This document shows, one piece after another, positions 28,598-63,875 of a stretch of 64,000 nucleotides of DNA. Each line of letters begins with the position of its first letter. Position 1 is the first letter of the stretch. The notes beneath the pieces were generated by a model. It was not told the origin of the DNA, ran no database searches, and was given only the letters and a program-made list of their open reading frames with translations. The translations under genes and the position numbers were made by a program. This DNA comes from an uncultured bacterium (GTDB lineage: Bacteria > Muiribacteriota > Ozemobacteria > Ozemobacterales > Ozemobacteraceae): positions 16,196-80,195 of the forward strand of contig CAYYIY010000014.1 of the NCBI GenBank assembly GCA_964472075.1, read 5' to 3'.

Positions 28598-28836
28598 GCT
28601 TACCGGCAGATGCGATGATGCTTACAGATGATTGTTGTCGAATCTCGTGATGAGAAGACGAGTGACGAACGGGAGAGTGAACCCCGCATGGGGCGAGTTT
28701 GCGAATCAGTGAACCTGCTTGCTGTTGAATGCTTTTGCACGAAATCGCGTGTATGCAACGGGCGAGGTGTGCTATCTTGATCTGTCCGGTCGATTTTATG
28801 GGATCCCGGTGAAGAACCGCGGCAGGAGTGCGTTGT

Positions 28837-31800: not shown

Positions 31801-31854
31801 ATGAAGGAGCCTGCGACCTCTGACTCCCACAAGCCGGAGTCGAAAGCTTCGTAA
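28837..31854 (+). CDS. Large PHP-domain-like protein fused to a multi-pass membrane domain
   Basis: DDHVHDFLSEGRKTP, GIEFS, WIHP and GSDSTG resemble PHP motifs; several TM helices after about residue 640; RBS AGGAG before ATG 28837. Confidence 0.65.
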   Translation: MAYVSEFFSGVLNLMFTLLNSFVTWLSFSSEIENMVDAVNHKIDEPPTRIGHRMSSHPGGFVKIVGKRRLNMAGAYIKISNDHAPQDAAERLAALKMLAEEALHAKTISMPLNTARVQIALMKKVVKSQGNKRRQMEAMSDFGLASYGNESTIRDFLKRNSLIEVPELDAPLKSIDMGWDDHVHDFLSEGRKTPTQVILDAFVKGISRLTLVHSTIDQPQLIHEAISAGNILGIDVQIGIEFSVGRSNNRRHYMFIPPRVENSQEFFRFFYDHNEQLEPFLRGLRANSEKRQKTMLLAMERFNTTMLPKINAGYQPHMPGWVQPLAWKDLDAYIVCGQVNRVHLAALLYNSMLRGYHARVLELKTQVLAAEERFRLGLYSEWEMKNVSSQYHNVRRIYENMSPEGLMAQYLDNRDVLDYDSEFVDEAPLLDILYELGGSILWIHPLELGLKEAVTHLVQNCHRLTHIETLNLRDSVQRNPETINLFSRFVHLFNNQPLSEIRHYLDQNDIQTLTIEEVERQRRGMGERRLVPVCGSDSTGRDVAIPGMGFIQSSRIPEAVRSSFREHHFRLARPVAQLILSKGADPKGMQGAPEDQDIICMGKIGRPMHNSVGDEPPEHHFNVFRFWHYLNSTIKNSVRIAIGFSAALYWMNYQYALAAGLFFACLWFFITGFRNFLVDMIASSGTDFRSWALKNVNFDNLAQSLYWTGFSVPLLGLVKMQYDELWPLEKTGMLFETVKFFFICFANGTYIVFHNRLRNFDRKVMKANFFRTMIAFPFATVFSPIGNAMGIPSIVQAKFWSDFVAGLIEGSGKFRQRFVLRQRDLKELLPRLYSMDRDARLTAMLDILYIWARQPRGKTCLAHLLLQSRSWWVKVKEWWYGRETPEEVKKIQGQYYQYYERICELYIDTGCLLNMTQFILNRFSGRDAVLLTKLVGEELETFRTWLRALRSHYDEKKPEYVDVKEYLPPALQKEDTFVMPQSIDELKQMKEPATSDSHKPESKAS

Positions 31855-34501: not shown

Positions 34502-35152
34502 ATGATGATAATCCCATCTTGCGCGAGAGTACGAGTGAAAAAAGCATTCACGCTTGTTGAAATGAGCGTCACCATGCTGGTCGTATCCATCATTGGTCTG
34601 ATTCTATTGTCGGTGTTTCGCAGTAATGTCGCCGCCTGGAAGTGGGGCTCGAAGCACATGGAGTTTCAACAGAAGATTCAGTTGGCCATGAAGCAGGTGT
34701 TCACCGACATCAAGCGCATCAATCCGGTCGTCTATGCCGACGAAGCAGGGAACTACTGGTTCAAGGGCGAAAAGACCGGCGATCTGGTACCCAACCTGGT
34801 CGATATCATCGATGTCGACAAAGAGCCGCAGAACGGCGGCGAAGAGCTGATGATGTGGCACACCTCCTATGTCACGCCGGGCGAGAAGAACGGGGTGAGA
34901 TTGTTTCTGGAAGAAGGCGCGTTGATGCGCGAGCAGATTCTCCCCAACGAGAGTCGGCGCAAGTCGGTCGTGGCGAATCGCGTGTCCGACCTTCATTTTT
35001 TCAAGAATCCAGAGGATCCGCTCGAAATCAAGGTCGGCATGATCATTACCGATGATCGCAACCCGGACCTGAAGGAAAAACTGGCCTTTGCCGTGCATCT
35101 TGACACCGATCTCGTCTATGTGCGCATGGCCGGGGCGGAGGCCGAGCCATGA
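34502..35152 (+). CDS. Prepilin-type minor pilin/pseudopilin (PilW/GspJ-like)
   Basis: VKKA|FTLVEMSVTMLVV class III signal peptide. Confidence 0.85.
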   Translation: MMIIPSCARVRVKKAFTLVEMSVTMLVVSIIGLILLSVFRSNVAAWKWGSKHMEFQQKIQLAMKQVFTDIKRINPVVYADEAGNYWFKGEKTGDLVPNLVDIIDVDKEPQNGGEELMMWHTSYVTPGEKNGVRLFLEEGALMREQILPNESRRKSVVANRVSDLHFFKNPEDPLEIKVGMIITDDRNPDLKEKLAFAVHLDTDLVYVRMAGAEAEP

Positions 35153-40682: not shown

Positions 40683-40717
40683 ACTGGTACTTTCACACCG
40701 GTCGGGATCGAAAAGGA

Positions 40718-40933
40718 ATGATTGCCGTGTCGAAGTGGAAGATCAACGAAGATTTATGCAAGGGCTGCGGAATTTGTATCGCACGGTGCCCGGTGAAGGT
40801 TCTGGGCGTTGCGGAGCATCTTAACAAGAAGGGGTATCACCCGGCGAAGATGCTGAATGAAGAGAAGTGCACGAGTTGCGGGATCTGCGGGCGGAGCTGC
40901 CCGGATGTCGCGATCGAAGTGAGCAAGCCGTAA
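40718..40933 (+). CDS. 2-oxoacid:ferredoxin oxidoreductase delta subunit (2x4Fe-4S), copy 1
   Basis: CKGCGICIARCP and CTSCGICGRSCPD. Confidence 0.92.
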   Translation: MIAVSKWKINEDLCKGCGICIARCPVKVLGVAEHLNKKGYHPAKMLNEEKCTSCGICGRSCPDVAIEVSKP

Positions 40934-40945
40934 GGAGGCCGATCG

Positions 40946-42028
40946 ATGGCGGACAAAGTCTTGATGAAGGGAAATGAAGCGATCGGCGAGGCCGCGGTAT
41001 TGGCGGGCTGCCGACATTATTTCGGGTATCCGATCACGCCGCAGAGCGAACTGCCGGCGTATCTGTCGAAGCGCTTGCCCGAGGTCGAGGGCTGTTTTCT
41101 GCAGTCCGAGAGCGAAGTGGCGGCGATCAACATGGTGTTCGGCGCGGCGAGCGCGGGTGCTCGGGTGATGACGAGTTCGAGCAGCCCGGGCGTGAGCCTG
41201 ATGCAGGAAGGCATCTCGTACATTGCGGCGGCGGAGCTGCCGTGCGTGCTGGTGAACGTGGTGCGCGGCGGCCCGGGCCTTGGGAACATCGCGCCGGCGC
41301 AGTCGGATTATTTTCAGTCGACGCGGGGCGGCGGTCACGGGGACTATCGCACGATCGTGCTGGCACCGAACTCGGTTCAGGAGATGACGAACCTGACGTT
41401 GAAGGCATTTGAAGCGGCTGACAAGTTTCGGAACCCGGTACTGTTGATGGTCGACGGGGTTCTGGGCCAGATGATGGAGCCGGTGTTGCTGCCCGAGCCG
41501 GTGAACTACGACCCGACTGAGAAAAAGTGGGCGTTGACGGGCAAGGGTTCTCGCAAGGAGCGGAACCTGTGCACGACGATCTGGCTGGATGTCGAGCTGC
41601 TGGAAGAACACAACTGGCACCTGTATCAAAAGTACCAGTACATTACAGACGAATTCACGACGGGCAGCTGGAAAGAATACGGCTGCGAACTGCATCAGGT
41701 GGAAGATGCCGAGATCGTGCTGGTGGGATACGGTATCATTTCGCGCATTCTGAAGACCGTGGTCGAGAAGTGCCGCAAACGCGGGATCAAGGCGGGTCTG
41801 GTGCGCCCGATCACGTTGTGGCCGTTCCCGACGCCCTCGATTCAGAAACTGGTGCCGAGCGCCAAGCACTTTCTGTGCGTCGAGATGTCGACGGGCCAGA
41901 TGGTCGAAGATGTGAAGCTGGCGGTCGAAGGAAAGAAGCCGGTGTATTTCTACGGTCGCACGGGCGGCTCACTGCCTTCCGACTTCGAGATTCTGAACGA
42001 GATCGACAAAATCGTTCGGCCGGACTAA
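40946..42028 (+). CDS. vorB: 2-oxoacid:ferredoxin oxidoreductase alpha subunit (VorB-type), copy 1
   Basis: MKGNEAIGEAA, GYPITPQSE, ESEVAAINM, TSSSSPGVSLMQEG, RPITLWPFP. Confidence 0.92.
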   Translation: MADKVLMKGNEAIGEAAVLAGCRHYFGYPITPQSELPAYLSKRLPEVEGCFLQSESEVAAINMVFGAASAGARVMTSSSSPGVSLMQEGISYIAAAELPCVLVNVVRGGPGLGNIAPAQSDYFQSTRGGGHGDYRTIVLAPNSVQEMTNLTLKAFEAADKFRNPVLLMVDGVLGQMMEPVLLPEPVNYDPTEKKWALTGKGSRKERNLCTTIWLDVELLEEHNWHLYQKYQYITDEFTTGSWKEYGCELHQVEDAEIVLVGYGIISRILKTVVEKCRKRGIKAGLVRPITLWPFPTPSIQKLVPSAKHFLCVEMSTGQMVEDVKLAVEGKKPVYFYGRTGGSLPSDFEILNEIDKIVRPD

Positions 42029-42041
42029 GGAGGAAACGACG

Positions 42042-42797
42042 ATGCAGAAAATCTTCGAACGACCGAAAGCATTGAGCAAGAACCCGTTTCACTATTGTCC
42101 GGGTTGCGATCACGGCGTGATTCACCGCATGGTCGCGGAGTCGCTGGATGAACTGGAAGTGACCGGCAAGACGATCGGCGTGGCTCCGGTGGGCTGCTCG
42201 GTGTTTGCCTATGATTACTTTGACGTCGATTTCAACTCGGCGCCGCACGGCCGCGCTCCGGCGGTGGCGACGGGGATCAAGCGGGTTCACCCCGACTCGA
42301 TCGTGTTTTCGTATCAGGGCGACGGCGACTGCGCGGCGATCGGCACGGCCGAGATCGTGCATGCGGCGAACCGCGGCGAGAACATCACGGTGGTGTTCGT
42401 GAACAATGCGATCTACGGCATGACGGGCGGTCAGATGGCGCCGACGACGCTGATCGGCATGAAGACGGCGACCTCGCCGTACGGCCGCGATGCGAAGACG
42501 ATGGGTCATCCGATCAAGATGTCCGAGATGCTGTCGACGCTGACGGCTCCGGCCTTTGTGGCGCGCGTGTCGATTCACAATGTGGCGAATCTGATGAAGG
42601 CGAAGAAGGCGATCAAGCGCGCTTTCGAGATTCAGAAAGAGAAGAAGGGCTTCTCGTTCGTGGAAGTGCTGGCGATCTGCCCGACGAACTGGGGCAAGCC
42701 GCCGGTCGAAGCGCACAAGTGGCTCGAAGAAAACATGATTCCGGTGTTCCCGCTGGGTGTCTTCAAAGACGCCACCGGCGGACCCGCTGTCATGTAA
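42042..42797 (+). CDS. 2-oxoacid:ferredoxin oxidoreductase beta (TPP-binding) subunit, copy 1
   Basis: YCPGCDHG, PVGCS, HGRAPAVATG, GDGD...NNAIYGMTGGQ, CPTNW. Confidence 0.93.
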   Translation: MQKIFERPKALSKNPFHYCPGCDHGVIHRMVAESLDELEVTGKTIGVAPVGCSVFAYDYFDVDFNSAPHGRAPAVATGIKRVHPDSIVFSYQGDGDCAAIGTAEIVHAANRGENITVVFVNNAIYGMTGGQMAPTTLIGMKTATSPYGRDAKTMGHPIKMSEMLSTLTAPAFVARVSIHNVANLMKAKKAIKRAFEIQKEKKGFSFVEVLAICPTNWGKPPVEAHKWLEENMIPVFPLGVFKDATGGPAVM

Positions 42798-42822
42798 AAC
42801 CGGGAACAGGGAGGAAACGTAC

Positions 42823-43374
42823 ATGTATCCGAATTCTGAAGAGATCATCATGGCAGGTTTCGGCGGGCAGGGAATTCTCTTTCTCGGCAAGGTGCTGGCC
42901 GAAGCGGGCATGCGCTCCGGGAAACATGTCTCCTGGATTCCGAGCTACGGCCCCGAAATGCGCGGCGGCACGGCGAATTGTACGGTCGTGATTGCGAAAG
43001 ACCCGATCGGCTCGCCGATGGTGAACGAACCCGATTGCGTTCTGGCGTTGAACAAGCCGTCGATTGAAAAGTTCGCCAAAATGATCAGACAGGGCGGCGT
43101 CCTGGTCTACAATTCGTCAATGTCAGATCAGAAGCCGGAGAAAGAGGGAGTAAAATGTATTCCCGTTCCGGCAAGCAAGATTGCGGAAGAACTCGGCAGC
43201 ACCAGGGTGACCAACCTGGTGATGGTCGGAGCCTTTGCGAAATACAGTCAGATGATCAAGTTTGAAGACCTGGTCGATTGGCTGCCGAAGATCATTCCTG
43301 CCAAAAAGAAGGAACTCGCCGAGATCAACCTGAATGCGCTCAAGAAAGGGTATGAATATGTAACGAGCCACTGA
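42823..43374 (+). CDS. 2-oxoacid:ferredoxin oxidoreductase gamma subunit, variant 1
   Basis: AGFGGQG, PSYGPEMRGGTANC; RBS GGAGG before ATG 42823. Confidence 0.93.
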   Translation: MYPNSEEIIMAGFGGQGILFLGKVLAEAGMRSGKHVSWIPSYGPEMRGGTANCTVVIAKDPIGSPMVNEPDCVLALNKPSIEKFAKMIRQGGVLVYNSSMSDQKPEKEGVKCIPVPASKIAEELGSTRVTNLVMVGAFAKYSQMIKFEDLVDWLPKIIPAKKKELAEINLNALKKGYEYVTSH

Positions 43375-45906: not shown

Positions 45907-47577
45907 TCAGCGTTTCACCCGGCCTTTGCCCTTGCAGACAGTGCATCGTCCATTTCCACGACAGGACGGGCAGGTCTTACATTTGAGGTTGCTGTAATCC
46001 GTGATTTCGCCGCGACCATAACAGGTCTGGCAGTTCCCGCTGCCGGAACATGATGGGCAGAGCTGGTCGACGCTTTCAGAGGTTGTCTTCCGGTCGGAGT
46101 CCCTGGTTGGCTGAGTCTTGCCGGGCAGGGGCGGAACACGAGTCTCGTCACCGGGAAGTTCGACTTCAGCGAGCCTGGTGGCGTGTTCAAGACGTTGGAT
46201 CAACTCTTCCCAGGGGCGACTCTGCGCCCACTCCTCCTTGAACCCGTTCAGCGACAGATTTCGGGGTTGACTTTTGACATGCGCCAGGGCTTCTTGCGCC
46301 AGCTGTGTCGTGGTTCGGCCATCCTGCGTGCGTATCCAGGGGTTCGCCCCGAGATCGAGCAGAAGGCCGGCGGCGGTGGCATTCCGCTCGCGAAGAGCGG
46401 TCAGCAGGGGAGTTTCGTTCTTCAGGTTGAGTGCCTCGAGAGCCGCACCGGCACTGGCGAGCAGCGGTATCAGCACATGACCGCGCCACAGGGCGGCCAC
46501 CTCGTGCAGAGGTGCGTTACCGCCTGGAAGAGCGGTTTTCGGATCGGCTCCCTCGCGCAGAAGCGTGGCAACGAAATCCGCGTCGCCGCTACGCAGGGCT
46601 GTCGTCCAGAGTCGATTGAGAGTGGGGGCTGAAAGGGGAGCACTGGAGCTCGCCTGAACCCGCATCCGGGTGAACGTGGCGAAGTCGGGTGCCCAGCCCA
46701 ACGGTGAACAGCCGCCGGCGTCGAGCGTGTCCGGCGAGAACCCCAGTTCCAGGAGTGCCTGGTAGATGCCGGTGTGTCGTCGCTCGACGGCGTAGTGCAG
46801 AAGAGTGCCGCCATCACGGCCGGATGCCATCAGCCGTTGCGATTCAGAAGCGAATAGCGTCAGTTGCTCGGTGGTGCTCAATTCGTGAATCGGCATGCGG
46901 CCATGGGCATCCTGGTCTGTCCAGGCTTCAGGTCCGAGACAATCGGCCAGGCGCCTGAGAAACGCTGCGGGTGCTCCGTGACGGGCGGCGAGATGAAGAG
47001 TCGTCTGATTCTGCGACAATCGCTCGTGAAACGTATGCGCACCGGCCTCCATGAGCGTCTGGGCGACATCGAACTGTTTGCCGTGCAGAAGCTGGGAAAA
47101 CAGCGATTTTCCGAAGAGCGACTGATCCGGATTGCCTCCGGCGCGCAACAGGGGACCGATGAGCCGGGTATGGGGTGAGCTTCCGTAGATCGACAATTCC
47201 CGTGAGATCTCTTCGAGACCCCTGTTCGGATTCGCTCCGTGACGCAACAGGAATTCGAAGGAGTCGGTGGCGGTACTGGCACGTCGAAACGCGTCAGGCC
47301 AGAATTCATCTCGCCGAACGATCCAGGTTCCGAGTGACACCCATCGATAGGCGGTCATGATGGGCAGAATGCCGTGTTGAAAGGAACTGTCGATTTCTTG
47401 TTCCAGCCCCGCATGCGTGGCGAACGCCAGGCACAGCAGAACGACGACCGGCCATCGCGGGCCGATTCCTCGGCGCTGGGCGATCGAAAACACCAGGGCG
47501 GGAAAAAACAGCACGAACCCTGTGAGAAGACCGAGTCCGGAGATGAAAATCGATGCCCAGCTCAGAATGTTTGCCAC
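45907..47577 (-). CDS. Membrane-anchored ankyrin-repeat protein with C-terminal DnaJ-type zinc finger
   Basis: Two N-terminal hydrophobic segments; ankyrin motifs (TTLHLAA, TLLHYAV, APLHEVA, TPLLTAL); C-terminal CxxCxGxG x4. Confidence 0.8.
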   Translation of the reverse strand: MANILSWASIFISGLGLLTGFVLFFPALVFSIAQRRGIGPRWPVVVLLCLAFATHAGLEQEIDSSFQHGILPIMTAYRWVSLGTWIVRRDEFWPDAFRRASTATDSFEFLLRHGANPNRGLEEISRELSIYGSSPHTRLIGPLLRAGGNPDQSLFGKSLFSQLLHGKQFDVAQTLMEAGAHTFHERLSQNQTTLHLAARHGAPAAFLRRLADCLGPEAWTDQDAHGRMPIHELSTTEQLTLFASESQRLMASGRDGGTLLHYAVERRHTGIYQALLELGFSPDTLDAGGCSPLGWAPDFATFTRMRVQASSSAPLSAPTLNRLWTTALRSGDADFVATLLREGADPKTALPGGNAPLHEVAALWRGHVLIPLLASAGAALEALNLKNETPLLTALRERNATAAGLLLDLGANPWIRTQDGRTTTQLAQEALAHVKSQPRNLSLNGFKEEWAQSRPWEELIQRLEHATRLAEVELPGDETRVPPLPGKTQPTRDSDRKTTSESVDQLCPSCSGSGNCQTCYGRGEITDYSNLKCKTCPSCRGNGRCTVCKGKGRVKR

Positions 47578-47696: not shown

Positions 47697-47723
47697 TGGC
47701 CGTTCAAACATCCTCGAGGAGGA

Positions 47724-47939
47724 ATGATTGCCGTGTCGAAGTGGAAGATCAACGAAGATTTGTGCAAGGGCTGCGGAATTTGTATCGCACGGTGCCCGGT
47801 GAAGGTTCTGGGCGTTGCGGAGCATCTTAACAAGAAGGGGTATCACCCGGCGAAGATGCTGAATGAAGAGAAGTGCACGAGTTGCGGGATCTGCGGGCGG
47901 AGCTGCCCGGATGTCGCGATCGAAGTGAGCAAGCCGTAA
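47724..47939 (+). CDS. OFOR delta subunit, copy 2
   Basis: Protein identical to 40718-40933; start set at ATG 47724. Confidence 0.9.
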   Translation: MIAVSKWKINEDLCKGCGICIARCPVKVLGVAEHLNKKGYHPAKMLNEEKCTSCGICGRSCPDVAIEVSKP

Positions 47940-47951
47940 GGAGGCCGATCG

Positions 47952-49034
47952 ATGGCGGACAAAGTCTTGATGAAGGGAAATGAAGCGATCGGCGAGGCCG
48001 CGGTATTGGCGGGCTGCCGACATTATTTCGGGTATCCGATCACGCCGCAGAGCGAACTGCCGGCGTATCTGTCGAAGCGCTTGCCCGAGGTCGAGGGCTG
48101 TTTTCTGCAGTCCGAGAGCGAAGTGGCGGCGATCAACATGGTGTTCGGCGCGGCGAGCGCGGGTGCTCGGGTGATGACGAGTTCGAGCAGCCCGGGCGTG
48201 AGCCTGATGCAGGAAGGCATCTCGTACATTGCGGCGGCGGAGCTGCCGTGCGTGCTGGTGAACGTGGTGCGCGGCGGCCCGGGCCTTGGGAACATCGCGC
48301 CGGCGCAGTCGGATTATTTTCAGTCGACGCGGGGCGGCGGTCACGGGGACTATCGCACGATCGTGCTGGCACCGAACTCGGTTCAGGAGATGACGAACCT
48401 GACGTTGAAGGCATTTGAAGCGGCTGACAAGTTTCGGAACCCGGTACTGTTGATGGTCGACGGGGTTCTGGGCCAGATGATGGAGCCGGTGTTGCTGCCC
48501 GAGCCGGTGAACTACGACCCGACTGAGAAAAAGTGGGCGTTGACGGGCAAGGGTTCTCGCAAGGAGCGGAACCTGTGCACGACGATCTGGCTGGATGTCG
48601 AGCTGCTGGAAGAACACAACTGGCACCTGTATCAAAAGTACCAGTACATTACAGACGAATTCACGACGGGCAGCTGGAAAGAATACGGCTGCGAACTGCA
48701 TCAGGTGGAAGATGCCGAGATCGTGCTGGTGGGATACGGTATCATTTCGCGCATTCTGAAGACCGTGGTCGAGAAGTGCCGCAAACGCGGGATCAAGGCG
48801 GGTCTGGTGCGCCCGATCACGTTGTGGCCGTTCCCGACGCCCTCGATTCAGAAACTGGTGCCGAGCGCCAAGCACTTTCTGTGCGTCGAGATGTCGACGG
48901 GCCAGATGGTCGAAGATGTGAAGCTGGCGGTCGAAGGAAAGAAGCCGGTGTATTTCTACGGTCGCACGGGCGGCTCACTGCCTTCCGACTTCGAGATTCT
49001 GAACGAGATCGACAAAATCGTTCGGCCGGACTAA
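47952..49034 (+). CDS. vorB: OFOR alpha subunit (VorB-type), copy 2
   Basis: Protein identical to 40946-42028. Confidence 0.9.
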   Translation: MADKVLMKGNEAIGEAAVLAGCRHYFGYPITPQSELPAYLSKRLPEVEGCFLQSESEVAAINMVFGAASAGARVMTSSSSPGVSLMQEGISYIAAAELPCVLVNVVRGGPGLGNIAPAQSDYFQSTRGGGHGDYRTIVLAPNSVQEMTNLTLKAFEAADKFRNPVLLMVDGVLGQMMEPVLLPEPVNYDPTEKKWALTGKGSRKERNLCTTIWLDVELLEEHNWHLYQKYQYITDEFTTGSWKEYGCELHQVEDAEIVLVGYGIISRILKTVVEKCRKRGIKAGLVRPITLWPFPTPSIQKLVPSAKHFLCVEMSTGQMVEDVKLAVEGKKPVYFYGRTGGSLPSDFEILNEIDKIVRPD

Positions 49035-49047
49035 GGAGGAAACGACG

Positions 49048-49803
49048 ATGCAGAAAATCTTCGAACGACCGAAAGCATTGAGCAAGAACCCGTTTCACTA
49101 TTGTCCGGGTTGCGATCACGGCGTGATTCACCGCATGGTCGCGGAGTCGCTGGATGAACTGGAAGTGACCGGCAAGACGATCGGCGTGGCTCCGGTGGGC
49201 TGCTCGGTGTTTGCCTATGATTACTTTGACGTCGATTTCAACTCGGCGCCGCACGGCCGCGCTCCGGCGGTGGCGACGGGGATCAAGCGGGTTCACCCCG
49301 ACTCGATCGTGTTTTCGTATCAGGGCGACGGCGACTGCGCGGCGATCGGCACGGCCGAGATCGTGCATGCGGCGAACCGCGGCGAGAACATCACGGTGGT
49401 GTTCGTGAACAATGCGATCTACGGCATGACGGGCGGTCAGATGGCGCCGACGACGCTGATCGGCATGAAGACGGCGACCTCGCCGTACGGCCGCGATGCG
49501 AAGACGATGGGTCATCCGATCAAGATGTCCGAGATGCTGTCGACGCTGACGGCTCCGGCCTTTGTGGCGCGCGTGTCGATTCACAATGTGGCGAATCTGA
49601 TGAAGGCGAAGAAGGCGATCAAGCGCGCTTTCGAGATTCAGAAAGAGAAGAAGGGCTTCTCGTTCGTGGAAGTGCTGGCGATCTGCCCGACGAACTGGGG
49701 CAAGCCGCCGGTCGAAGCGCACAAGTGGCTCGAAGAAAACATGATTCCGGTGTTCCCGCTGGGTGTCTTCAAAGACGCCACCGGCGGACCCGCCGTCATG
49801 TAA
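49048..49803 (+). CDS. OFOR beta subunit, copy 2
   Basis: Protein identical to 42042-42797. Confidence 0.9.
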   Translation: MQKIFERPKALSKNPFHYCPGCDHGVIHRMVAESLDELEVTGKTIGVAPVGCSVFAYDYFDVDFNSAPHGRAPAVATGIKRVHPDSIVFSYQGDGDCAAIGTAEIVHAANRGENITVVFVNNAIYGMTGGQMAPTTLIGMKTATSPYGRDAKTMGHPIKMSEMLSTLTAPAFVARVSIHNVANLMKAKKAIKRAFEIQKEKKGFSFVEVLAICPTNWGKPPVEAHKWLEENMIPVFPLGVFKDATGGPAVM

Positions 49804-49818
49804 AACCGGAGGAAACCG

Positions 49819-50415
49819 ATGTCAACCAACATTGAACGCATCATTCTCGCCGGTTTCGGCGGACAGGGAATTCTCTTTCTCGGCAAGGTGCTGGCCGAAG
49901 TCGGTATGCATTCGGGCAAGCATGTTTCCTGGATTCCAAGCTACGGACCGGAAATGCGAGGTGGTACGGCCAACTGTACGGTCGTCATTTCCGAGAACCC
50001 GATTGCCTCGCCGATGGTGACGATTCCCGATACCGTCATCGCACTGAACAAACCTTCGGTGGCGAAGTTCAGCCCTCGCATCAAGGGTGGCGGCATGTTG
50101 ATGTACAACTCATCGTTGATTGAACGACAGGAATTTCGCGATGACATTCGCCTGGTCGAGATTCCGGCAAGTGAAATTGCCGACGATCTCGGAAACCCGC
50201 GCGTGGCGAACATGGTGATGGCGGGTGCGTATGCCAAGTACAGCAAGGTGATCACCTATGACGACCTGGTACGCCTGCTGCCGAATCTGCTGCCGGCCAA
50301 GAAAAAAGAACTGATCGAGATCAACATGGCGGCCGTCGAACGCGGATACTCGTTCGTGAAAGAGAAAAAGTACATGTTTGGTCGCTACGTCTACTCTGTG
50401 TTCAAGGGTCAGTAA
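49819..50415 (+). CDS. OFOR gamma subunit, variant 2
   Basis: AGFGGQG, PSYGPEMRGGTANC; roughly 60% identical to variant 1 by hand alignment. Confidence 0.93.
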   Translation: MSTNIERIILAGFGGQGILFLGKVLAEVGMHSGKHVSWIPSYGPEMRGGTANCTVVISENPIASPMVTIPDTVIALNKPSVAKFSPRIKGGGMLMYNSSLIERQEFRDDIRLVEIPASEIADDLGNPRVANMVMAGAYAKYSKVITYDDLVRLLPNLLPAKKKELIEINMAAVERGYSFVKEKKYMFGRYVYSVFKGQ

Positions 50416-53232: not shown

Positions 53233-54753
53233 TCAGAGGATGGAAATGCGTTCCAGCTCGGATAGTGTGATGGTGCCTGCAGCGACGGCTTCGGCACCGG
53301 CGCGCAGAAGGGTGCGGCGCGGCGGCTTCTGAAGCGCTCGACCGATGGCACGACGATCGCCGGTCTGCAGAGTATCCTTAAAGGTTTTGGCCGGCGTGAA
53401 GATCTCGTAGAGGGCAAGGCGGCCTCGATAGCCGCTTTGATTGCACTTTTCACAACCTTTGCCGAGACGCGCCTTCATGGGGAGTCCGGCGCCGCCGTAT
53501 CTCTTGAGAGCCGCGGCCGACACCCTGGCGGGAACGGCGCATGAAGGGCACACCTTGCGGGCCAGCTGTTGCACGACGACGCCGGTGAGAGCCGAAGCCA
53601 GCAAATGGGGCGGAGCTTTCAAATCGAGCAGTTTGCCGATGACCTCTTCGACCGACGAGGCATGCATGGTCACGAAGATCAGGTGGCCGGTGAGAGCCAG
53701 TTTCAGGATCCTGTCCATGGCTTTTTCGTCAGGGATGTCACTGACATAGATGACATCGGGGTCGCCGCGATCGATGGCCGCGAGCAGAGCCGAGCAGGTC
53801 AGCCCGAGATGGGGTCGGACATGGGTTTGTGCAATACCCGGCAGGATCATCTCATACGGAGCCTCAACGGTAGCGAGGTTGCGCTGTCCTTTCTCACGCA
53901 GCTGCTGAAGAGCGTGGTAGGCCGTTGTCATCTTGCCCGAGCCGTGCGGGCCGGCGATGACCACCAGGCCGAACGGAGAGTTGATCAGACGTTGAAAAGC
54001 CGCACGATCGTCCGGGTTGGGGAAAAGAACTTCCGGCTTCCACTGCTGTTCTTCCTGAATCAGCAACCGCATGGTAATGGTTTCACCAAGGGCGGTCGGT
54101 AGCACGTTGACCCGGATGTCGACGGACTTGCCCTTGATCTCAACGACCATGCGCCCATCCTGCGGCAACATGTGTTCCGCCACGTCAAGGCAGGCCTTAT
54201 ATTTCGCGCATGAGGTAAGAGTTTCCTTGAACGTCAGCCCGTACTCTTTCCCATCGACCAACACGTTGTCGACGCGGAAACGCACGCGCATGCCCTCCGG
54301 AAGAGGCACGAGAATCAGATGAGACGCCCGGCGATCCACGGCTTCCTGCAGTAATGAGAAGAGCTCCTGCTCAAACGCCTGCCGCTGATCGGAGTGACTG
54401 TCCGAGTTGTCGGCTGACGATTCGGCCATGGATCCCATGAAGGGGATCAGGCCGTCACGCACGCCCTGGGCGATCTTGGGCATCATGACATCGAGCGTGC
54501 CCTGGTTTTCTCCGGCACGAGCCATGCTGATGTATGAGGCCGAGAACACGGTGGGAACGGAAGCGAGGGCGTCGCAGAAGCTGCTGCCGCTCGAGATGCT
54601 GTGCAGGATCCGGCGTGTCGCATCAGCCATGATCGGGTCCGGGGTTTCGACGGCGATCGTTTCGAGAGCCGCCATCAACGGAACACCGGAGCCGAGAAAG
54701 AAGCCGAGTTTATCGGAAAATGCCGCCAGTGATTCTTTGAGGTCGGTAGACAT
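53233..54753 (-). CDS. Fusion of a soluble T2SSF/PilC domain to a GspE/PilB-type ATPase with degenerate catalytic motifs
   Basis: N-terminal FSDKLGFFLGSGVPL...ARAGENQGTL (T2SSF); RVRFRVD, DGRM, GPHGSGKMTT, DPDVIYVSDIPD, TGHLIFVTMH, CPSC/CEKC, GYRGRLALYE. Confidence 0.85.
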   Translation of the reverse strand: MSTDLKESLAAFSDKLGFFLGSGVPLMAALETIAVETPDPIMADATRRILHSISSGSSFCDALASVPTVFSASYISMARAGENQGTLDVMMPKIAQGVRDGLIPFMGSMAESSADNSDSHSDQRQAFEQELFSLLQEAVDRRASHLILVPLPEGMRVRFRVDNVLVDGKEYGLTFKETLTSCAKYKACLDVAEHMLPQDGRMVVEIKGKSVDIRVNVLPTALGETITMRLLIQEEQQWKPEVLFPNPDDRAAFQRLINSPFGLVVIAGPHGSGKMTTAYHALQQLREKGQRNLATVEAPYEMILPGIAQTHVRPHLGLTCSALLAAIDRGDPDVIYVSDIPDEKAMDRILKLALTGHLIFVTMHASSVEEVIGKLLDLKAPPHLLASALTGVVVQQLARKVCPSCAVPARVSAAALKRYGGAGLPMKARLGKGCEKCNQSGYRGRLALYEIFTPAKTFKDTLQTGDRRAIGRALQKPPRRTLLRAGAEAVAAGTITLSELERISIL

Positions 54754-57656: not shown

Positions 57657-59015
57657 TCAGCGGTCGCTCAGAGTTTTGAGCAGGCCGGCTGCCGTCTGTC
57701 GTAAAGACTGGTCGAAGCGACCTTCGACGAACAGATGAAAGCGAATCTGCTCGGCGATGAAACGGGCTTCGTCGCGAGAGACAGTCTCTGCCTGCCTGAC
57801 GAAGGTGCGCAGTTCTTCGGTGTTGCCCTCATCGAGATCTTCGATGATGCCGGCGGCGGTCGCCTTTTTGTGATAATCGCGAATCATTTCGTCGTAGAGC
57901 GACTCTCGGGCAAAGGTGAGGTTCAGGTATTCCTTGTCGAAACCGGCTGCGGTTCGGGGAAAATAGATGGCCAGCCCGTGAGCGTGTTTCATCGCTTCGC
58001 CGGTCACGGCGTTGGCGACGATGACCTGATCAAGTGCCTTTTCGAGCTTGTCGGCAGCGGTTTTGAATTCCGGGGTCTTGATGCGGTCGCGCAGCAGCTT
58101 GATGAAGTGCCACAGATCGATATGGGCTTTGGTGTCGAACTTCTGCACATCGCTCAGAGCCTGTTTGTATGCCTGCGCATGCGAACCGGACATGGCGACC
58201 TTGGCCCATCCGTCGATCGCGTCTTTCAGAGCCGGTAGCCGACCGCAGTCGAGCGCCGACTGCGTGGTTTCTTCGGTGCCGTAGACTCCGCCGTTATAGG
58301 CGCTCTTGAAGGAAGCGACCATGTGGCCGACAAATTCGCGGGGTGTCGTGTACGGCTTCAGCCCGGCCATGTGGCTGTCGTAGGGATACCCGTTCCCGGG
58401 TTCGAGTTCTTCGGAGGCTACGATGTAATCAACGTTCCGATGGGCTTCCCAGGCGATTTCCATCATCTGCATGAGACAGGCGTCCATCGTGAGCAGGTCG
58501 AGGTTTCTGCCGAGAATCGCTTTGATTTCTCGGGTGGCCAGGCCGAGCTGGGCGGTGGTGATGTAGTTGCCGCTCTGATCGTCGTAAGAAATTCCCTTGA
58601 AGACCTTCTGCGTATGTTTCCAGCCGGAGCCGTGGTTCCAGATACTGAGAGCGTAGTGGCGGGCGGGATACAAGCCGGCGACTTCCTTCACGAAGTTCAC
58701 CAGGACTTTCCAGTCGCCCATATCGATTTCGCCAAGCTCACGTATGGTAACGTTGTTGCCTTTCTCGACATAATGCAGGGCAGCCGGACCCTTCTCGCGG
58801 TCGGTGATGGTGATGATATTGAGCCAGTCACTGCTGCCGACGCGCATCAGTTCCGTGAAGTCTTCATCGGCGAACGGGTCGAGATCATTGTCGGCGTTCA
58901 TGAAGATCATGTACGTCCAGGCTTTGGTCGCCTTTGCTTCGGCGCCGGCAAACCCGGTGGTGATGCTCGCGCAGATGATCGCTATCGCCAGCAGCCATGT
59001 TCCCGGTCGAATCAT
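57657..59015 (-). CDS. Secreted clostripain family cysteine peptidase (C11)
   Basis: Signal peptide; WTYMIFMNADNDL, WNHGSGW (His), DACLM (Cys), IVASEE. Confidence 0.92.
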   Translation of the reverse strand: MIRPGTWLLAIAIICASITTGFAGAEAKATKAWTYMIFMNADNDLDPFADEDFTELMRVGSSDWLNIITITDREKGPAALHYVEKGNNVTIRELGEIDMGDWKVLVNFVKEVAGLYPARHYALSIWNHGSGWKHTQKVFKGISYDDQSGNYITTAQLGLATREIKAILGRNLDLLTMDACLMQMMEIAWEAHRNVDYIVASEELEPGNGYPYDSHMAGLKPYTTPREFVGHMVASFKSAYNGGVYGTEETTQSALDCGRLPALKDAIDGWAKVAMSGSHAQAYKQALSDVQKFDTKAHIDLWHFIKLLRDRIKTPEFKTAADKLEKALDQVIVANAVTGEAMKHAHGLAIYFPRTAAGFDKEYLNLTFARESLYDEMIRDYHKKATAAGIIEDLDEGNTEELRTFVRQAETVSRDEARFIAEQIRFHLFVEGRFDQSLRQTAAGLLKTLSDR

Positions 59016-59237: not shown

Positions 59238-60646
59238 TCACTGTGAAAGCATTTTTTGGCATTTACACAGGGTGTGTCCGCAGTACCATTCGTTGCATAC
59301 CGAACACTTTTTTTTGGGACCGCAGGATTCACATCTCGGCCAGGCGACGGCTTGTCCTATCCCGGAAGAGGACGAGGCACATTCGCATTTGGGAGCCGCC
59401 GCGCAGTAGGTTTGACGACAGAAGTCGCAGGTCCAGGTGTTCGGGCAGGGAGGCGGATAGTTGCACCATCGACATCGTTGCACGACTCCCAGACAAGGCA
59501 AATGGGCATCGTAGGCGGCCTGGTCGATGAAGCTTTTCTGACAAACACGTCGCATGTCGGACCACCCGCCGGCGGTGACGAGGCAATGTCGCTACAAGGG
59601 CACGGTGGCGACTGAGGGCATCTCTTGGCCTTACATTTGCTGCAGATTTCGAAATGCGCTTGAAAAAGCTCGACGGTGTCGAACGTTCGATTGCACGTGG
59701 GGCAGAATCTGGAGCCTGTCCCGGCGCTTCCTGAAGCGGGGGCGCCGAAACCAGGCAGCGACGGGTCGGCGGCTCCGGGGAGCGAGCCGATGAGCACCTG
59801 TTCGTCAGGCGTTGGAGCCATGGGGTCGCCGGGGGGCGGGGGAGGCGGAGGCGCTGGATTCTGCGCGAGGAGGGAGTCGGTCTGAGTGGTGGGAGCCGTT
59901 GGTTCACCCGTGCTGCCGGGGAATCCAGGCGGCGACGTGAGTCCGCCGGGATTGAAGGCCGGGAGTGTGCCGTATAAATTGGGAAGTCCGGTGGGGGGAG
60001 GCGGCAAGCCGAGTCGGAAAACCGGCGGAAGGGCCGGGGGTCTTGCGCCGAGTACTTGGGCAATGTCTCGAATGTCCGTGAGTGTCGTGAGGGTTTGAAT
60101 CATCTGTTCGGCTTGCGGGCGCTTGTTCTTGCGATCCGTCAGAAGCTGAGTGATCTTCGAACCGTACGATGTGCCGCCGGCCGGAAAGTTCTTGGCATCG
60201 ATCTCGCTGAACAGTAGAGTCTTCAGCTGAGCCGGGTCAAGCAGATCAGGAATGTGCTCGACGCGCCAGACATAGACCCGAGGAGTTTTTACGACCGTGA
60301 CCCTCGCATAGATATCAGCCTGGTTCGGTGCACCCGGCGCATTCTCGACATACAGGTCATAACGGGCGCCGAGGTAGGATAGCCCGTTTTCGGCTACTGG
60401 AGCGGACTTGAAGAACCTTTCTTCCCAGGGTTTCAGATAGATTCTGGCGAGTACACGCTGAAACCCGGAGTAAGCAACCTGAAACGAAACTTGTTGTTCG
60501 TTTGTGTGCTGGACCTGGGTGCGCAGCCCCTGATTCATTACTGATACCGTGAATCCGAAAAACGTCAGGCTGACGGCGGCGCACAATGCCAGTAACAAGG
60601 CATACCCACGGGCAGAACCTCTCGAAAAAACCTGCGATGGCAACAT
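59238..60646 (-). pseudogene. PilX-like minor pilin with Pro-rich linker and very Cys-rich C-terminus; frameshift near 59543-59548
   Basis: ARG|YALLLAL...QVSFQVAYSG PilX-type N-terminus (RBS GGAG). After PTCDV the Cys-rich pattern continues in the frame of ORF 59238-59555; removing 2 nt restores TCDVCQKSF, parallel to the upstream FCPTCNRTF. Real lesion versus sequencing error is unresolved. Confidence 0.65.
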
Positions 60647-60730: not shown

Positions 60731-61255
60731 ATGAGAAGAGGCGGGTTCACTTCGATCGAGTTGCTGGTTGTGGCAGCGATTCTGGCCATGGTGATTGCCA
60801 TCGGCCTGCAATTGGTTTTCAGCCGCAATCAGGCCGAACAGAGTCTGATGGGCAGACTCAGTCTTCAGAGTGATGCGCGCAAAGTTGCGGATATGCTCAT
60901 TGCCCGTGTTCGAGAGGGAGCGGAAGTCGTGCGTCCGTTTCTGGGTGAAACACGCAACTACATGGTGTATCTCGATGGGGTAAACAATACCTGCATGATC
61001 TACATGACCGAAGACGCTGAAAACACCAAGAAATTCAATAGGCCTTTGTACAAGCTCATTTCATACACGCATACCTATACGGGGTCGGGTTTTCAGCCGC
61101 AACAGGAAAGGGTTCTCGGCACGGCGCTGCAGCGAGTGGCATTCACCACGATTTCCCCGAACAGCGTACAAGTTACGGCGACGATTGCGAATGAAAAGTC
61201 CGAGTTTCAGTTTGTCACACACGCAGGGTTGCTGAATTTTGGAGGAGCGAAATGA
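60731..61255 (+). CDS. Prepilin-type minor pilin (PilW/GspJ-like)
   Basis: RRGG|FTSIELLVVAAIL class III signal peptide. Confidence 0.85.
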   Translation: MRRGGFTSIELLVVAAILAMVIAIGLQLVFSRNQAEQSLMGRLSLQSDARKVADMLIARVREGAEVVRPFLGETRNYMVYLDGVNNTCMIYMTEDAENTKKFNRPLYKLISYTHTYTGSGFQPQQERVLGTALQRVAFTTISPNSVQVTATIANEKSEFQFVTHAGLLNFGGAK

Positions 61256-62655
61256 ACTATTCTCGTGGTCCGCGTGGGTTTACCCTGCCGGAATTGCTGA
61301 TCGGACTCGGCATCATGAGTTTTCTGGCGGTCGCTTTCTTTGTCTTTTTGCAGTCGAGCAGTCGTCAGAGTGCGTTCAGCGCGGAGCACTTCACCGGGGT
61401 TCTGCTGGCTCAGAAGGTAACAGAGGATCTCGCCGAAGAGACAACGACGAATCCGCACGCGTTTCTCGCCCTGGGCATGAGCGGCACGCCCGCCCCCACG
61501 CCGATCATTGATGGGCAATCAACGTTTTTCGCGTATCTCGAAGACCGATATCCGCCGCTCGGGCAGATTGATCCGGCAGGTGAGGGAACGATTGATGCAA
61601 ACTACGAGCCGCTGTACAGGCAGGTGAAGGAATTCACTCTGGGTGTATCAGGAAAACCTCTGGCCTCGGTCGGCGGCTTCGATGAGAAAAAGCATCTCAG
61701 CGAAGCGCAGCTCGATTTTGTCTGGAAGACGCAAACCGGTATCGGGCGATACTCGTCGAGCTGTCTCTATTTCACGCCTTCAACCGCCAAGCCCGTGTCA
61801 AACGTGGTAACCATCAATCAGAGCGATGTCGATGCCGAGATCTGTCGCCGATTCTTTCGCACTCCGGGCGGTGACCTCACGCAGTTGACCACGACGTATG
61901 GGGGAGATCGTGACACCATTCGGGCCATCGGTACAATTTTTGTGGTGACGCATGCGTTTGCGCAGTCGACGACCACGAAAAATCTACTGCAGCAACAGAA
62001 AACCCAGCAAAGCCAGGTGGATCTATTCGGGTCGAACCAGAATGACACGGCATATCAGGCCCGCAAGTCTCTGGCGGAAACCAACTATGAGCTGGCGAAA
62101 CTCTGCTTTCAGGTCTGTCATGCCCTGCAGCCTTCGATTGACCGACTGCAGAATCGCATGAACCAGAATCAGCTTGGACAAGTGCTCTGGACGTATCCGA
62201 ACCGGTACGCTTATGGTCTGCAGACACTGGATCGCATCTACAAGACGTTTGTAACCAGTCTGTCATCGTCCGCCGCACATTATCGCCGTCTGCTCGATTA
62301 TCCGCAGGCGATCGCCCGCGGTCCGCGAGAATTTCAGGATATCGTTTCCCGGGTGATCACTCTTGAAAGAACGGCCGTGATGCTTCCGGAACTGACGAGC
62401 GCCATGACGACCTATCGCCGTACGCTCGACGACTTCCGCATTTTTTCTCAGGGTCGCAATCCGTTTCTCAATCGATTCGTCATGCAGGAAAAGCAGTTCG
62501 CGCTGACGACAACGAAGCTTACCGAAAAGCATCCGCACCTGGCGACGGTCAGAAGTATTGCCGGAGAAAGCATGGTTCGGTATTACAACTCCCTGCGCAA
62601 TCTCCCTGCTAGTCCGTTGAATCCGATGTCTCCGAGTGCCACGGCAAAAAATTAA
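61252..62655 (+). CDS. Large prepilin-type protein (PilV-like head plus long helical extension)
   Basis: PRG|FTLPELLIGLGIM class III signal peptide; 467 aa. Confidence 0.8.
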   Translation: MNYSRGPRGFTLPELLIGLGIMSFLAVAFFVFLQSSSRQSAFSAEHFTGVLLAQKVTEDLAEETTTNPHAFLALGMSGTPAPTPIIDGQSTFFAYLEDRYPPLGQIDPAGEGTIDANYEPLYRQVKEFTLGVSGKPLASVGGFDEKKHLSEAQLDFVWKTQTGIGRYSSSCLYFTPSTAKPVSNVVTINQSDVDAEICRRFFRTPGGDLTQLTTTYGGDRDTIRAIGTIFVVTHAFAQSTTTKNLLQQQKTQQSQVDLFGSNQNDTAYQARKSLAETNYELAKLCFQVCHALQPSIDRLQNRMNQNQLGQVLWTYPNRYAYGLQTLDRIYKTFVTSLSSSAAHYRRLLDYPQAIARGPREFQDIVSRVITLERTAVMLPELTSAMTTYRRTLDDFRIFSQGRNPFLNRFVMQEKQFALTTTKLTEKHPHLATVRSIAGESMVRYYNSLRNLPASPLNPMSPSATAKN

Positions 62656-62816: not shown

Positions 62817-63875
62817 TCAGGCGTGCGGCAAGGTCGTGCCGGGTTCGAGCACCTTGCGGATCATGCCGCCGCTGACTTCCGTGACGGGAGCAATGATCAG
62901 AAAGGCGGCCGGATCGATCTCGTGCACGATGTTTCGAATTTTCGGAATCTCGAGACGCGTGATGATGCAGAACAGGACTTCCTGTTCCCGTGCGGAGTAG
63001 CCGCCTTTGCCCTGCAGAACCGTCACGCCGCGTCCGAGATCGTTGACGATCGCGAGGCGAATTTCCTGATGAAGCCGTGACACGATCAGGATGCCGTTAA
63101 AGGGTTCGATTCCGTGCATCAGGAAGTCGACCGTTTTTGAGGCGGACACATACGTGAGGATCGAGTACATGACCGATTCGATGGGGAGAACCAGGCTGCC
63201 TGCCGAAAAGATCATGATGTTGAAGATGAGAATGACATCGCCGATAGTGGCCGGAAAACGCTTGCTGATCATCAAAGCCATGACTTCGGTGCCGTCGAGC
63301 ACGCCGCCGCCGCGAATCGAGAGACCGATGCCGGCGCCGAGAAAGAAACCGCCGAAAACGGCATCGAGCAGGCGGTCGTTGGTCAATACCGGCAGGGCAA
63401 GCAGGCCCAGCGAAAGGGACAGACCGATGATCGAGAGCGCGCATCGCACGGCAAAGCCGCGACCGACCTGAGTCCAGGCGGCATACATGAACGGCAGGTT
63501 GATCAGCGCAATCAGCCACGACAGATCGATGCCGGTGACGGTCGCTGCCAGCATCGAAATGCCGGTCACGCCGCCGTCGATCAGATGGTTCGGCAGCAGA
63601 AAGCTTTTCAGGCCGATGGTTGCCGAGAGGATCCCGAGAAACAGAAAGCCGATATCCATGGCCGGGCGCAGTTTTGCCCAGTCGATGCGCGACTTGGTTT
63701 CCGCCGCGGGGATCAAGGCATTCGTGTATCCGCAGGCTCGGCAGACAAACTTCCTGTCCGCCGGGTCTTCCTGCTGGCGATTGCCGCAGGTCGGGCAGGT
63801 CATGAGCGTGAGGTCCGGCGGCGCGGAACTGCGGCGACCTTTCAGCAGCAATCGCACCGCCGCAAAGATGTTCAA
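62817..63875 (-). CDS. YitT family membrane protein (DUF161 + DUF2179) with N-terminal zinc ribbon
   Basis: FLLPNHLIDGGVTG, GGGVLDGTE, RGVTVLQGKGGYS, IDPAAF; CPTC...CRAC at the N-terminus; TTG start with RBS AGGAG. Confidence 0.88.
   Translation of the reverse strand: MNIFAAVRLLLKGRRSSAPPDLTLMTCPTCGNRQQEDPADRKFVCRACGYTNALIPAAETKSRIDWAKLRPAMDIGFLFLGILSATIGLKSFLLPNHLIDGGVTGISMLAATVTGIDLSWLIALINLPFMYAAWTQVGRGFAVRCALSIIGLSLSLGLLALPVLTNDRLLDAVFGGFFLGAGIGLSIRGGGVLDGTEVMALMISKRFPATIGDVILIFNIMIFSAGSLVLPIESVMYSILTYVSASKTVDFLMHGIEPFNGILIVSRLHQEIRLAIVNDLGRGVTVLQGKGGYSAREQEVLFCIITRLEIPKIRNIVHEIDPAAFLIIAPVTEVSGGMIRKVLEPGTTLPHA

Follow-up and report, generated by a model that had tools for sequence, protein, structure and literature searches.

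A GspK/PilX-like minor pseudopilin candidate from an Ozemobacteraceae bacterium with a Cys/His-rich head of predicted metal-binding modules

Modular type IV pilins are built from an N-terminal pilin module, a linker and a grafted C-terminal module that differs among relatives, as in Streptococcus sanguinis, where the grafted module is of vWA type in PilB and a lectin in PilC (Raynaud et al. 2021, PMC8179133). At the tip of a related filament GspK caps the GspI-J-K complex (PMC8179133), and in Neisseria and Thermus minor pilins act as DNA receptors (PMC4906244, PMC6561018). Here we describe a gene found in a stretch of 64,000 nucleotides (nt; hereafter the window) from an uncultured Ozemobacteraceae bacterium (GenBank assembly GCA_964472075.1, contig CAYYIY010000014.1, positions 16,196 to 80,195 of the forward strand). 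The gene occupies 59238..60646 on the minus strand and is split by a 2-nt insertion as assembled; its repaired product has 468 amino acids (aa). We propose, with a probability of about 0.55, that it encodes a modular minor pseudopilin of Riflebacteria/Ozemobacteraceae-like bacteria, in which a GspK/PilX-like carrier holds a head of metal modules outside the cytoplasmic membrane.

Like the modular type IV pilins, the protein joins a pilin-like module through a linker to an unrelated C-terminal module that varies among relatives, and the domain order (N-terminal pilin-like module, Pro/Gly-rich linker, Cys tail) is the one that an earlier first-pass annotation of the sequence had described. It differs from them in a carrier that has neither the IPR012902/N_methyl signature nor Glu5, and in a linker that is very long and Pro-rich. 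With GspK of the type II secretion system and PilX of the type IVa pilus it shares a Gly at -1, a hydrophobic helix without Glu5 and the third place in a gene set that opens with a small and a large minor pilin, and GspK is the best hhalign match of the family among Gsp proteins; however, it is a member of neither family by hidden Markov model (HMM), has no GspK-type alpha-domain insertion and carries an extra module appended at its C-terminus. Neisseria ComP and Thermus ComZ/PilA2 are likewise minor pilins carrying a binding function, and ComZ is the best structural neighbour of the carrier at low root-mean-square deviation (rmsd), but these proteins bind DNA via surface patches or a beta-solenoid and not via zinc fingers (PMC6561018, PMC4906244). 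A full-text search for a minor pilin with a zinc finger gave no paper describing such a pilin, and the accessible part of the supplementary text of the modular-pilin survey (PMC8179133) holds no entries for OmpA, zinc or four InterPro ids. Judged from sequence, a modular minor pseudopilin with a metal-module head, part of it a known C2H2 family and the rest an unmatched 8-ligand module occurring in two lineages, appears unprecedented.

The reading frame has to be settled before the head can be discussed. As assembled, the frame that opens at the ATG at 60646, which is preceded by a ribosome-binding-site-like GGAG 8-11 nt upstream, ends at 59357 and yields a 429-aa product (P0001), and the Cys pattern is carried on in the -1 frame, in an open reading frame (ORF) at 59555..59238. 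The shift is caused by two nucleotides at 59544..59545, AA on the plus strand and TT on the minus strand. Removal of this TT joins TGC GAC GTG to TGT CAG and gives the 468-aa protein, which ends at a stop codon at 59238-59240 and whose C-terminal 158 aa contain 25 Cys and 3 His. Three independent lines support the correction. A wastewater metagenome yielded a Logan contig of 233 nt (X4) that matches the window at 95-99% identity over 59489-59713 and omits exactly 2 nt at 59545. An ENA metagenome contig encodes a diverged ortholog (L008) in which the finger interrupted in the window, ZF2, stands in an unbroken frame as CNNCQKCFISQATYDAHLPC, with C-N-N-C at this point, and a codon-level comparison places two extra T in the window between GTG and TGT. 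Finally, this junction-spanning finger rises above the Pfam thresholds in the repaired frame only. The first-pass annotation was therefore right to treat the locus as one gene broken by a 2-nt indel, with a tail of about 25 Cys whose motif is divided between two frames.

Two other accounts of the broken frame were set aside. Programmed frameshifting is unlikely because GUG-UUU-G is not a slippery heptamer, and the near-identical strain simply lacks the 2 nt; two separate genes, with a cytoplasmic 105-aa ORF starting from 59555, do not fit a finger that crosses the junction or the single frame of L008. A codon-usage score did not discriminate between frames in the tail because the composition of the tail is odd, and the window gene was found in none of the RNA runs searched.

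If the insertion is real, however, the tail would be a dying remnant in this genome and the cell would make the 429-aa product, in which a single module precedes 59 residues read out of frame. The insertion is present in the window sequence, at a site that is neither a repeat nor a homopolymer of the type usual for sequencing indels, and the contigs of the source-study runs, the hot-spring runs X1-X3, end either side of 59450-59554 at a depth of 3-6x. Against this, the 101 codons past the shift contain zero stops and retain every Cys and His, so that the insertion is either very recent or an assembly error, and coverage of just 3-6x makes the latter plausible. A strain 95-99% identical is without the insertion, and between lineages purifying selection on the modules is strong, as described below. 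Decay of the tail is in our view somewhat unlikely.

The carrier (residues 1-205, 60032..60646, minus strand) begins with a short basic leader and an invariant G14-Y15, which opens a hydrophobic segment of about 23 residues with Leu at +5 in place of the Glu5 of true prepilins. This segment is aligned by hhalign to 'QRG-VALL' of Escherichia coli GspK. From the basic N-terminus and single hydrophobic helix we infer that the rest of the protein lies outside the cytoplasmic membrane. The AlphaFold2 (AF2) model built on an alignment of 15 sequences is pilin-like and has a mean predicted local distance difference test score (pLDDT) of 79, with a helix at 12-71, a five-strand antiparallel beta-meander and a second helix at 160-188. 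Compared with the Gsp proteins of E. coli K-12, the family profile matches GspK with a probability of 40% (E 2.9e-4, over 157 columns from the N-terminus), GspJ with 2.6% and GspM with 0.3%. The low-rmsd neighbours of the model in Foldseek, none of them significant, are pilins only, namely Thermus ComZ (probability 0.84, 4.0 A over 106 columns) and S. sanguinis PilA (probability 0.63, rmsd about 4 A). Neither the carrier profile nor the tail retrieved a meaningful match from PDB sequences.

The genomic context also speaks for a pilin-like carrier. Divergently to the gene lie a small prepilin-type protein of 174 aa (60731..61255, plus strand, junction G/FTSIE) and a large one of 467 aa (61252..62655, plus strand, G/FTLPE), and both are always linked to the family: their homologs are adjacent in the window and at the loci L001, L003, L005 and L006/L007. 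At L005 and L006/L007 all three genes run in one direction as an operon, in the order small, large, carrier-family gene; in the window and at L001 the two prepilins are divergent from the carrier gene, and at L003 they are convergent. Because of the Gly-Tyr without Glu5, the predicted fold, the low-rmsd pilin neighbours, the hhalign match to GspK and this gene context, the carrier is therefore best described as GspK/PilX-like in role and assigned to neither Pfam family. The PilX-type N-terminus of the first-pass annotation thus survives as a likeness, and gives way as a family assignment, no PilX_N or GspK model having matched.

The relatives show what the carrier usually holds. Fourteen were retrieved as proteins (13 and P0003), making 15 aligned proteins with that of the window, and all of the relatives with a named source come from Candidatus Riflebacteria or Ozemobacteraceae metagenome-assembled genomes, to which lineage the family, from the sequences in hand, looks restricted. 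Of the 15 aligned proteins, 12 have an OmpA domain (PF00691, peptidoglycan-binding) as head, one (P0017) has SH3_3, and the head of P0016 is without family assignment. Homology between the window protein and the OmpA-type relatives runs through the Pro-rich linker and stops after 'DSLLxxP' (about residue 272); the Pro/Gly-rich linker itself (residues 206-310, 59717..60031, minus strand) belongs to a region, residues 180-290, that is 75% identical to L008. Among the relatives found, the Cys-module tail is confined to the window lineage and L008. Since most relatives carry OmpA at this position, the head has been swapped, and since the window gene keeps the conserved neighbourhood, it is a positional ortholog with its head exchanged. 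A word-index homolog search with the tail alone gave no match, yet it did not list the window's own protein either, and its sensitivity is doubtful. One apparent tail homolog, L009, was discarded: its H-x3-C-x2-C motif lies in an unrelated protein encoded by a gene truncated at the contig start.

These heads invite another interpretation, in which the carrier is a bitopic inner-membrane protein of the TonB/MotB kind, its Pro-rich spacer crosses the periplasm and the head is a tether or leash for pseudopilus machinery inside the periplasm. Peptidoglycan binders in 13 of the aligned proteins (12 with OmpA, one with SH3b), the length of the Pro-rich spacer, the lack of Glu5 and of any N_methyl or PilX_N match and the non-significant Foldseek result all speak for it, and it is compatible with most of the data. 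Against it stand a predicted fold that is pilin-like and unlike that of PilN/O or GspM, an invariant G-Y that opens the helix as in GspK, and a gene that is always linked to two prepilins in the third-gene position of GspK. We consider a tether of this kind unlikely.

The head begins with module W1 (residues 315-351, 59594..59704, minus strand; 7 Cys and 1 His), in which a C2HC beta-beta-alpha finger (CPTC..H..C; ZF1) is fused to C-x2-C-x4-C-x5-C-x-C. A free finger, ZF2 (residues 365-384, CDVC..H..C; 59493..59554, minus strand), follows; it is the one interrupted by the insertion, and it is conserved in L008. For the whole repaired protein zf-C2H2_jaz (PF12171) scores 35.0 bits against a gathering cutoff of 22.6. 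Taken alone, ZF2 scores 26.2 with zf-met (PF12874; cutoff 21.2) and 24.6 with zf-C2H2_jaz (cutoff 22.6), and ZF1 scores 22.3 with zf-C2H2_jaz, just under the cutoff of 22.6. The spacing is classical, C-x2-C-x3-F-x5-[FY]-x2-H, but both fingers (H-x3-C and H-x2-C), like that of L008, have Cys as fourth ligand, so that in place of a Cys2-His2 set these are C2HC variants. In a single-sequence AF2 model ZF1 adopts beta-beta-alpha (E3-5, E10-12, H15-29; pLDDT 62-72) and ZF2 gives a low-confidence helix only. An exhaustive HMMER scan of 1.84 billion representatives returned two proteins besides the window's own, P0004, which has 1482 aa and 17 repeats of the C2HC variant (E 3.7e-14), and a C2H2 protein (E 3.4e-4); both look eukaryotic from their sequences. 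The fingers thus share with eukaryote-type C2H2 fingers (zf-C2H2_jaz, zf-met) the pattern C-x2-C-x3-F-x5-[LFY]-x2-H, the core hydrophobics and the predicted beta-beta-alpha fold, whereas those fingers are nuclear or cytoplasmic and bind nucleic acid, and the window fingers sit on an exported bacterial pilin-like protein and end in a Cys ligand. The Ros/MucR prokaryotic zinc finger is likewise a bacterial Cys2His2-type zinc site, but has no sequence match to the tail.

The remaining ligands belong to further modules, W2 (residues 391-422, 59379..59474, minus strand; CRWC-x5-C-x5-CDFC-x4-C-x5-C-x-C, 8 Cys) and W3 (residues 438-462, 59259..59333, minus strand; CESC-x5-CSVC-x4-C-x-H-x2-C-x-C, 7 Cys and 1 His). 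An alignment of seven modules, three from the window (W1-W3) and four from L008 (L1-L4), has six invariant Cys in the order C-x2-C-(9-16)-C-x2-C-x3-[YF/R]-C-x(5-6)-[C/H]-x-C, over modules of about 25-37 aa, and one ligand column is Cys in five of the seven and His in two. Each of the seven holds exactly 8 Cys and His, although the eighth ligand is reached by different routes: an extra spacer Cys in W2, L3 and L4, an extra spacer His in W1, and a His two residues past the fifth Cys in W3, L1 and L2. The linkers between modules are free of Cys and His. In the window the ligands sum to 25 Cys and 3 His, that is 28, or 7 x 4, and seven tetrahedral metal sites are predicted in the tail. Pfam searches with isolated W2, W3 and L1-L4 gave no match at E <= 10 beyond trivial ones. 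The closest described modules are the binuclear zinc modules of the HIT, MYND, B-box, PHD and RING type, which also place eight Cys/His in about 30 aa around a core CxxC-x3-[YF]-C; they differ in the spacing after the fifth Cys and, as stated, in the absence of a Pfam match here. The CxxC-x3-[YF]-C of the window modules may resemble HIT and MYND fingers in particular.

The two CxxC-x3-F-x8-H units and three C-x2-C-x4-C-x4/5-C-x-C units reported by the first-pass annotation as novel motifs are all present, but their standing has changed. Both of the former match C2H2 models and so belong to a known family, an outcome that the annotation had itself named as a refutation; novelty is left to the other modules, which have no Pfam match, and the three five-Cys units are fragments of the larger 8-ligand module. 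A triple occurrence of the five-Cys unit arose in 0 of 200,000 composition-preserving shuffles, and a six-frame translation of the window contains the unit at no other place. A Cys density of this order can arise by chance, as shown by an antisense frame at 2741-2920 that reaches 11 Cys in 60 aa; the evidence for the tail is its ordered spacing, its Pfam matches and its conservation, not the Cys count.

Conservation is clearest in comparisons with L008. Nei-Gojobori estimates for W2 against L3 (26/32 aa identical, proportion of synonymous differences pS 0.72) give a ratio of nonsynonymous to synonymous substitution (omega) of 0.04, and those for linker plus ZF2 between window and L008 (24/33 aa identical, pS 0.73) one of 0.08; the carrier end plus linker (83/111 aa identical, pS 0.56) gives 0.20. 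The tail is under purifying selection, a direction that is clear although the values (omega 0.04-0.08) are rough because the blocks are short and the synonymous distance dS is saturated. The tail of L008 (1-1086 of its contig) differs in layout: a repeated PASGTPDPASGT linker stands between its modules, two modules have C-x-H-x3-H-x-C in place of C-x5-C-x-C, and the module order is shuffled relative to the window. This differing order, together with the near-identity of W2 and L3, points to module duplication or shuffling. Independent runs from digesters and sludge (X7, X8) gave the L008 sequence free of indels, and a wastewater variant (X9) has an unbroken frame and no indels relative to L008, with 14 of its 15 listed tail substitutions at third codon positions. 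The source runs are from digesters, sludge and a hot spring, and L008-type words occur in at least 19 runs of 13 studies (digesters, sludge, wastewater, biofilm). One of these is a metatranscriptome; a contig of 215 nt from it spans L3 together with the finger, with DNA carry-over possible. Presence of the allele in at least 19 public runs indicates a protein of a common uncultured anaerobe.

A tail rich in Cys and outside the membrane could be held together by disulfides as well as by metal, and the first-pass annotation had left the choice between the two. Exported Cys-rich domains are usually disulfide-knotted and metal-free. As a metal-free structural or adhesive domain the tail would fit its export, which the N-in anchor and the OmpA/SH3b heads of relatives support as the first-pass annotation had assumed, the invariant Cys positions under selection and the failure of AF2 to place the Cys. 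Several features are nevertheless hard to reconcile with disulfides: an odd Cys count of 25, the interchange of Cys and His at an aligned ligand column, His as eighth ligand in four of the seven modules, the location of every tail His within a module, two units that match C2H2 finger models, and an anaerobic host, in which, we infer, thiols may remain reduced after export and be available to Zn. The Cys/His interchange, the constant eight ligands, the odd Cys total and the true finger units argue for tetrahedral metal sites rather than disulfides, and the metal is most likely Zn(II); a disulfide knot is very unlikely.

Binding of iron by the modules, as rubredoxin-type Fe(Cys)4 or small Fe-S centres in a redox or electron-transfer role for filament or periplasm, would suit the CxxC...CxxC knuckles, the weak profile matches to rubredoxins and rubrerythrin, and an anaerobic host rich in Fe-S enzymes, but is extremely unlikely given that the rubredoxin matches are non-significant and mixed with zinc ribbons, PHD and B-box, that two units are bona fide C2H2-type fingers, that His ligands are present, as is typical of Zn sites, and that the tail has neither the ferredoxin CxxCxxCxxxCP nor CxxCH. 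A Fer4 HMM match is likewise absent from the tail; PFOR-type and Fe-S enzymes are encoded in the window, and true Fer4 proteins were detected elsewhere in it. None of the seven CxxC pairs of the tail precedes a His, and the protein is not a cytochrome c, as already recognized from the sequence.

Several observations weigh against the modular pseudopilin that we propose. The window gene is broken as assembled, and the supporting contigs are all short and 2-6x deep. X4 has an A>G change at 59667 that turns Leu327 into Pro at a conserved hydrophobic core position of ZF1; separately, its last 10 nt upstream of 59713 differ from the window (QSS in place of GTG). The substitution and the end mismatch could reflect relaxed constraint, a different linker or paralog, or error in a low-depth contig. 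For the carrier, the hhalign probability of 40% for GspK is modest, Foldseek found 0 matches in the PDB at E <= 0.001, the PilX_N (PF14341), T2SSK and GspK models gave zero matches at E <= 1 for the window protein or any of the 15 family members, and no N_methyl or NCBIfam pilin model matched a family member either. For the head, the module definition is post hoc and comes from two proteins, single-sequence AF2 models the tail poorly (pLDDT 43 overall), which bears on the fold of W2 and W3, and the module profile run against PDB sequences gave weak matches at E >= 0.016, all of them to metal-binding domains (eL43 zinc ribbons, KDM5A/B PHD, the Midline-1 B-box, rubredoxins, rubrerythrin). Finally, the OmpA and SH3b heads of relatives point to the periplasm and not to an exposed tip.

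With these points in mind we propose the following model for the modular pseudopilin. The carrier, encoded with two true prepilins as a three-gene minor-pilin set, would be inserted by the Sec/prepilin route, with Gly-Tyr as a processing-type junction. The long Pro-rich linker would then present the C-terminal head beyond the cytoplasmic membrane. In the window and L008 lineages the peptidoglycan-binding OmpA head would have been replaced by metal-binding modules arranged as beads on a string, which in the window are W1 (a C2HC finger and a second site), the free finger ZF2 and the 8-ligand W2 and W3. In the reducing surroundings of an anaerobe, periplasmic or external, this head would fold around metal. 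Together with the two adjacent prepilins it may assemble into a GspI-J-K-like priming or tip complex and serve as the part that binds the ligand. The pilus-tip label of the first-pass annotation is not retained for the protein, since a location in the periplasm would suit the OmpA/SH3b heads of relatives just as well.

As ligand, an envelope polymer and nucleic acid would be the leading candidates. According to Pfam, double-stranded nucleic acids are bound by the finger families of the jaz and matrin type, and together with the DNA-receptor minor pilins this makes nucleic acid the most interesting candidate, as a lead only. In its strongest form, the head would be a eukaryote-style zinc-finger array on a type IV filament tip complex that captures extracellular DNA, for uptake or for attachment in biofilms. 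We regard this as quite unlikely as it stands; if true, it would add a new class to the DNA receptors among pilins, and bacteria would have their first exported array of C2H2-type fingers.

Other genes of the window are recorded here as observations in their own right. Directly downstream on the same strand lies a secreted clostripain-family (Peptidase_C11) protein (57657-59015, minus strand), which is unlinked to the family at other loci. About 4.5 kb from the pilin genes, 53233-54753 (minus strand) encodes a 506-aa protein with a T2SSE ATPase match (residues 125-502) and a T2SSF platform-family match (residues 12-99), an unusual combination for an ATPase. Beyond the prepilins, 62817-63875 (minus strand) encodes a YitT/DUF2179 membrane protein with an N-terminal CxxC...CxxC zinc-ribbon extension. 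A 556-aa ankyrin-repeat protein (45907-47577, minus strand) ends in DnaJ-like CxxCxGxG repeats (CPSCSGSGNCQTCYGRG...CPSCRGNGRCTVCKGKG), a second and unrelated Cys-rich tail. A 2.37-kb direct duplication (40708-43077 and 47714-50074), its copies 97% identical and about 7 kb apart, contains a ferredoxin-like ORF and 2-oxoacid:ferredoxin oxidoreductase subunits (POR_N/PFOR_II, TPP_enzyme_C). Further away, a 1008-aa ORF without Pfam match (28828-31854, plus strand) lies upstream of TPR, FG-GAP and a further prepilin-type gene (34502-35152).

Modular pilins show how simple filaments gain functions by the exchange of heads, and the locus described here adds a clean natural swap inside one narrow family, from an OmpA head to a string of Cys/His modules. 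It also illustrates that a frameshift can conceal a conserved domain from ORF-based annotation. If zinc is bound outside the cytoplasm, the head would represent an undescribed extracytoplasmic role of C2H2-type and binuclear zinc modules on a bacterial filament.

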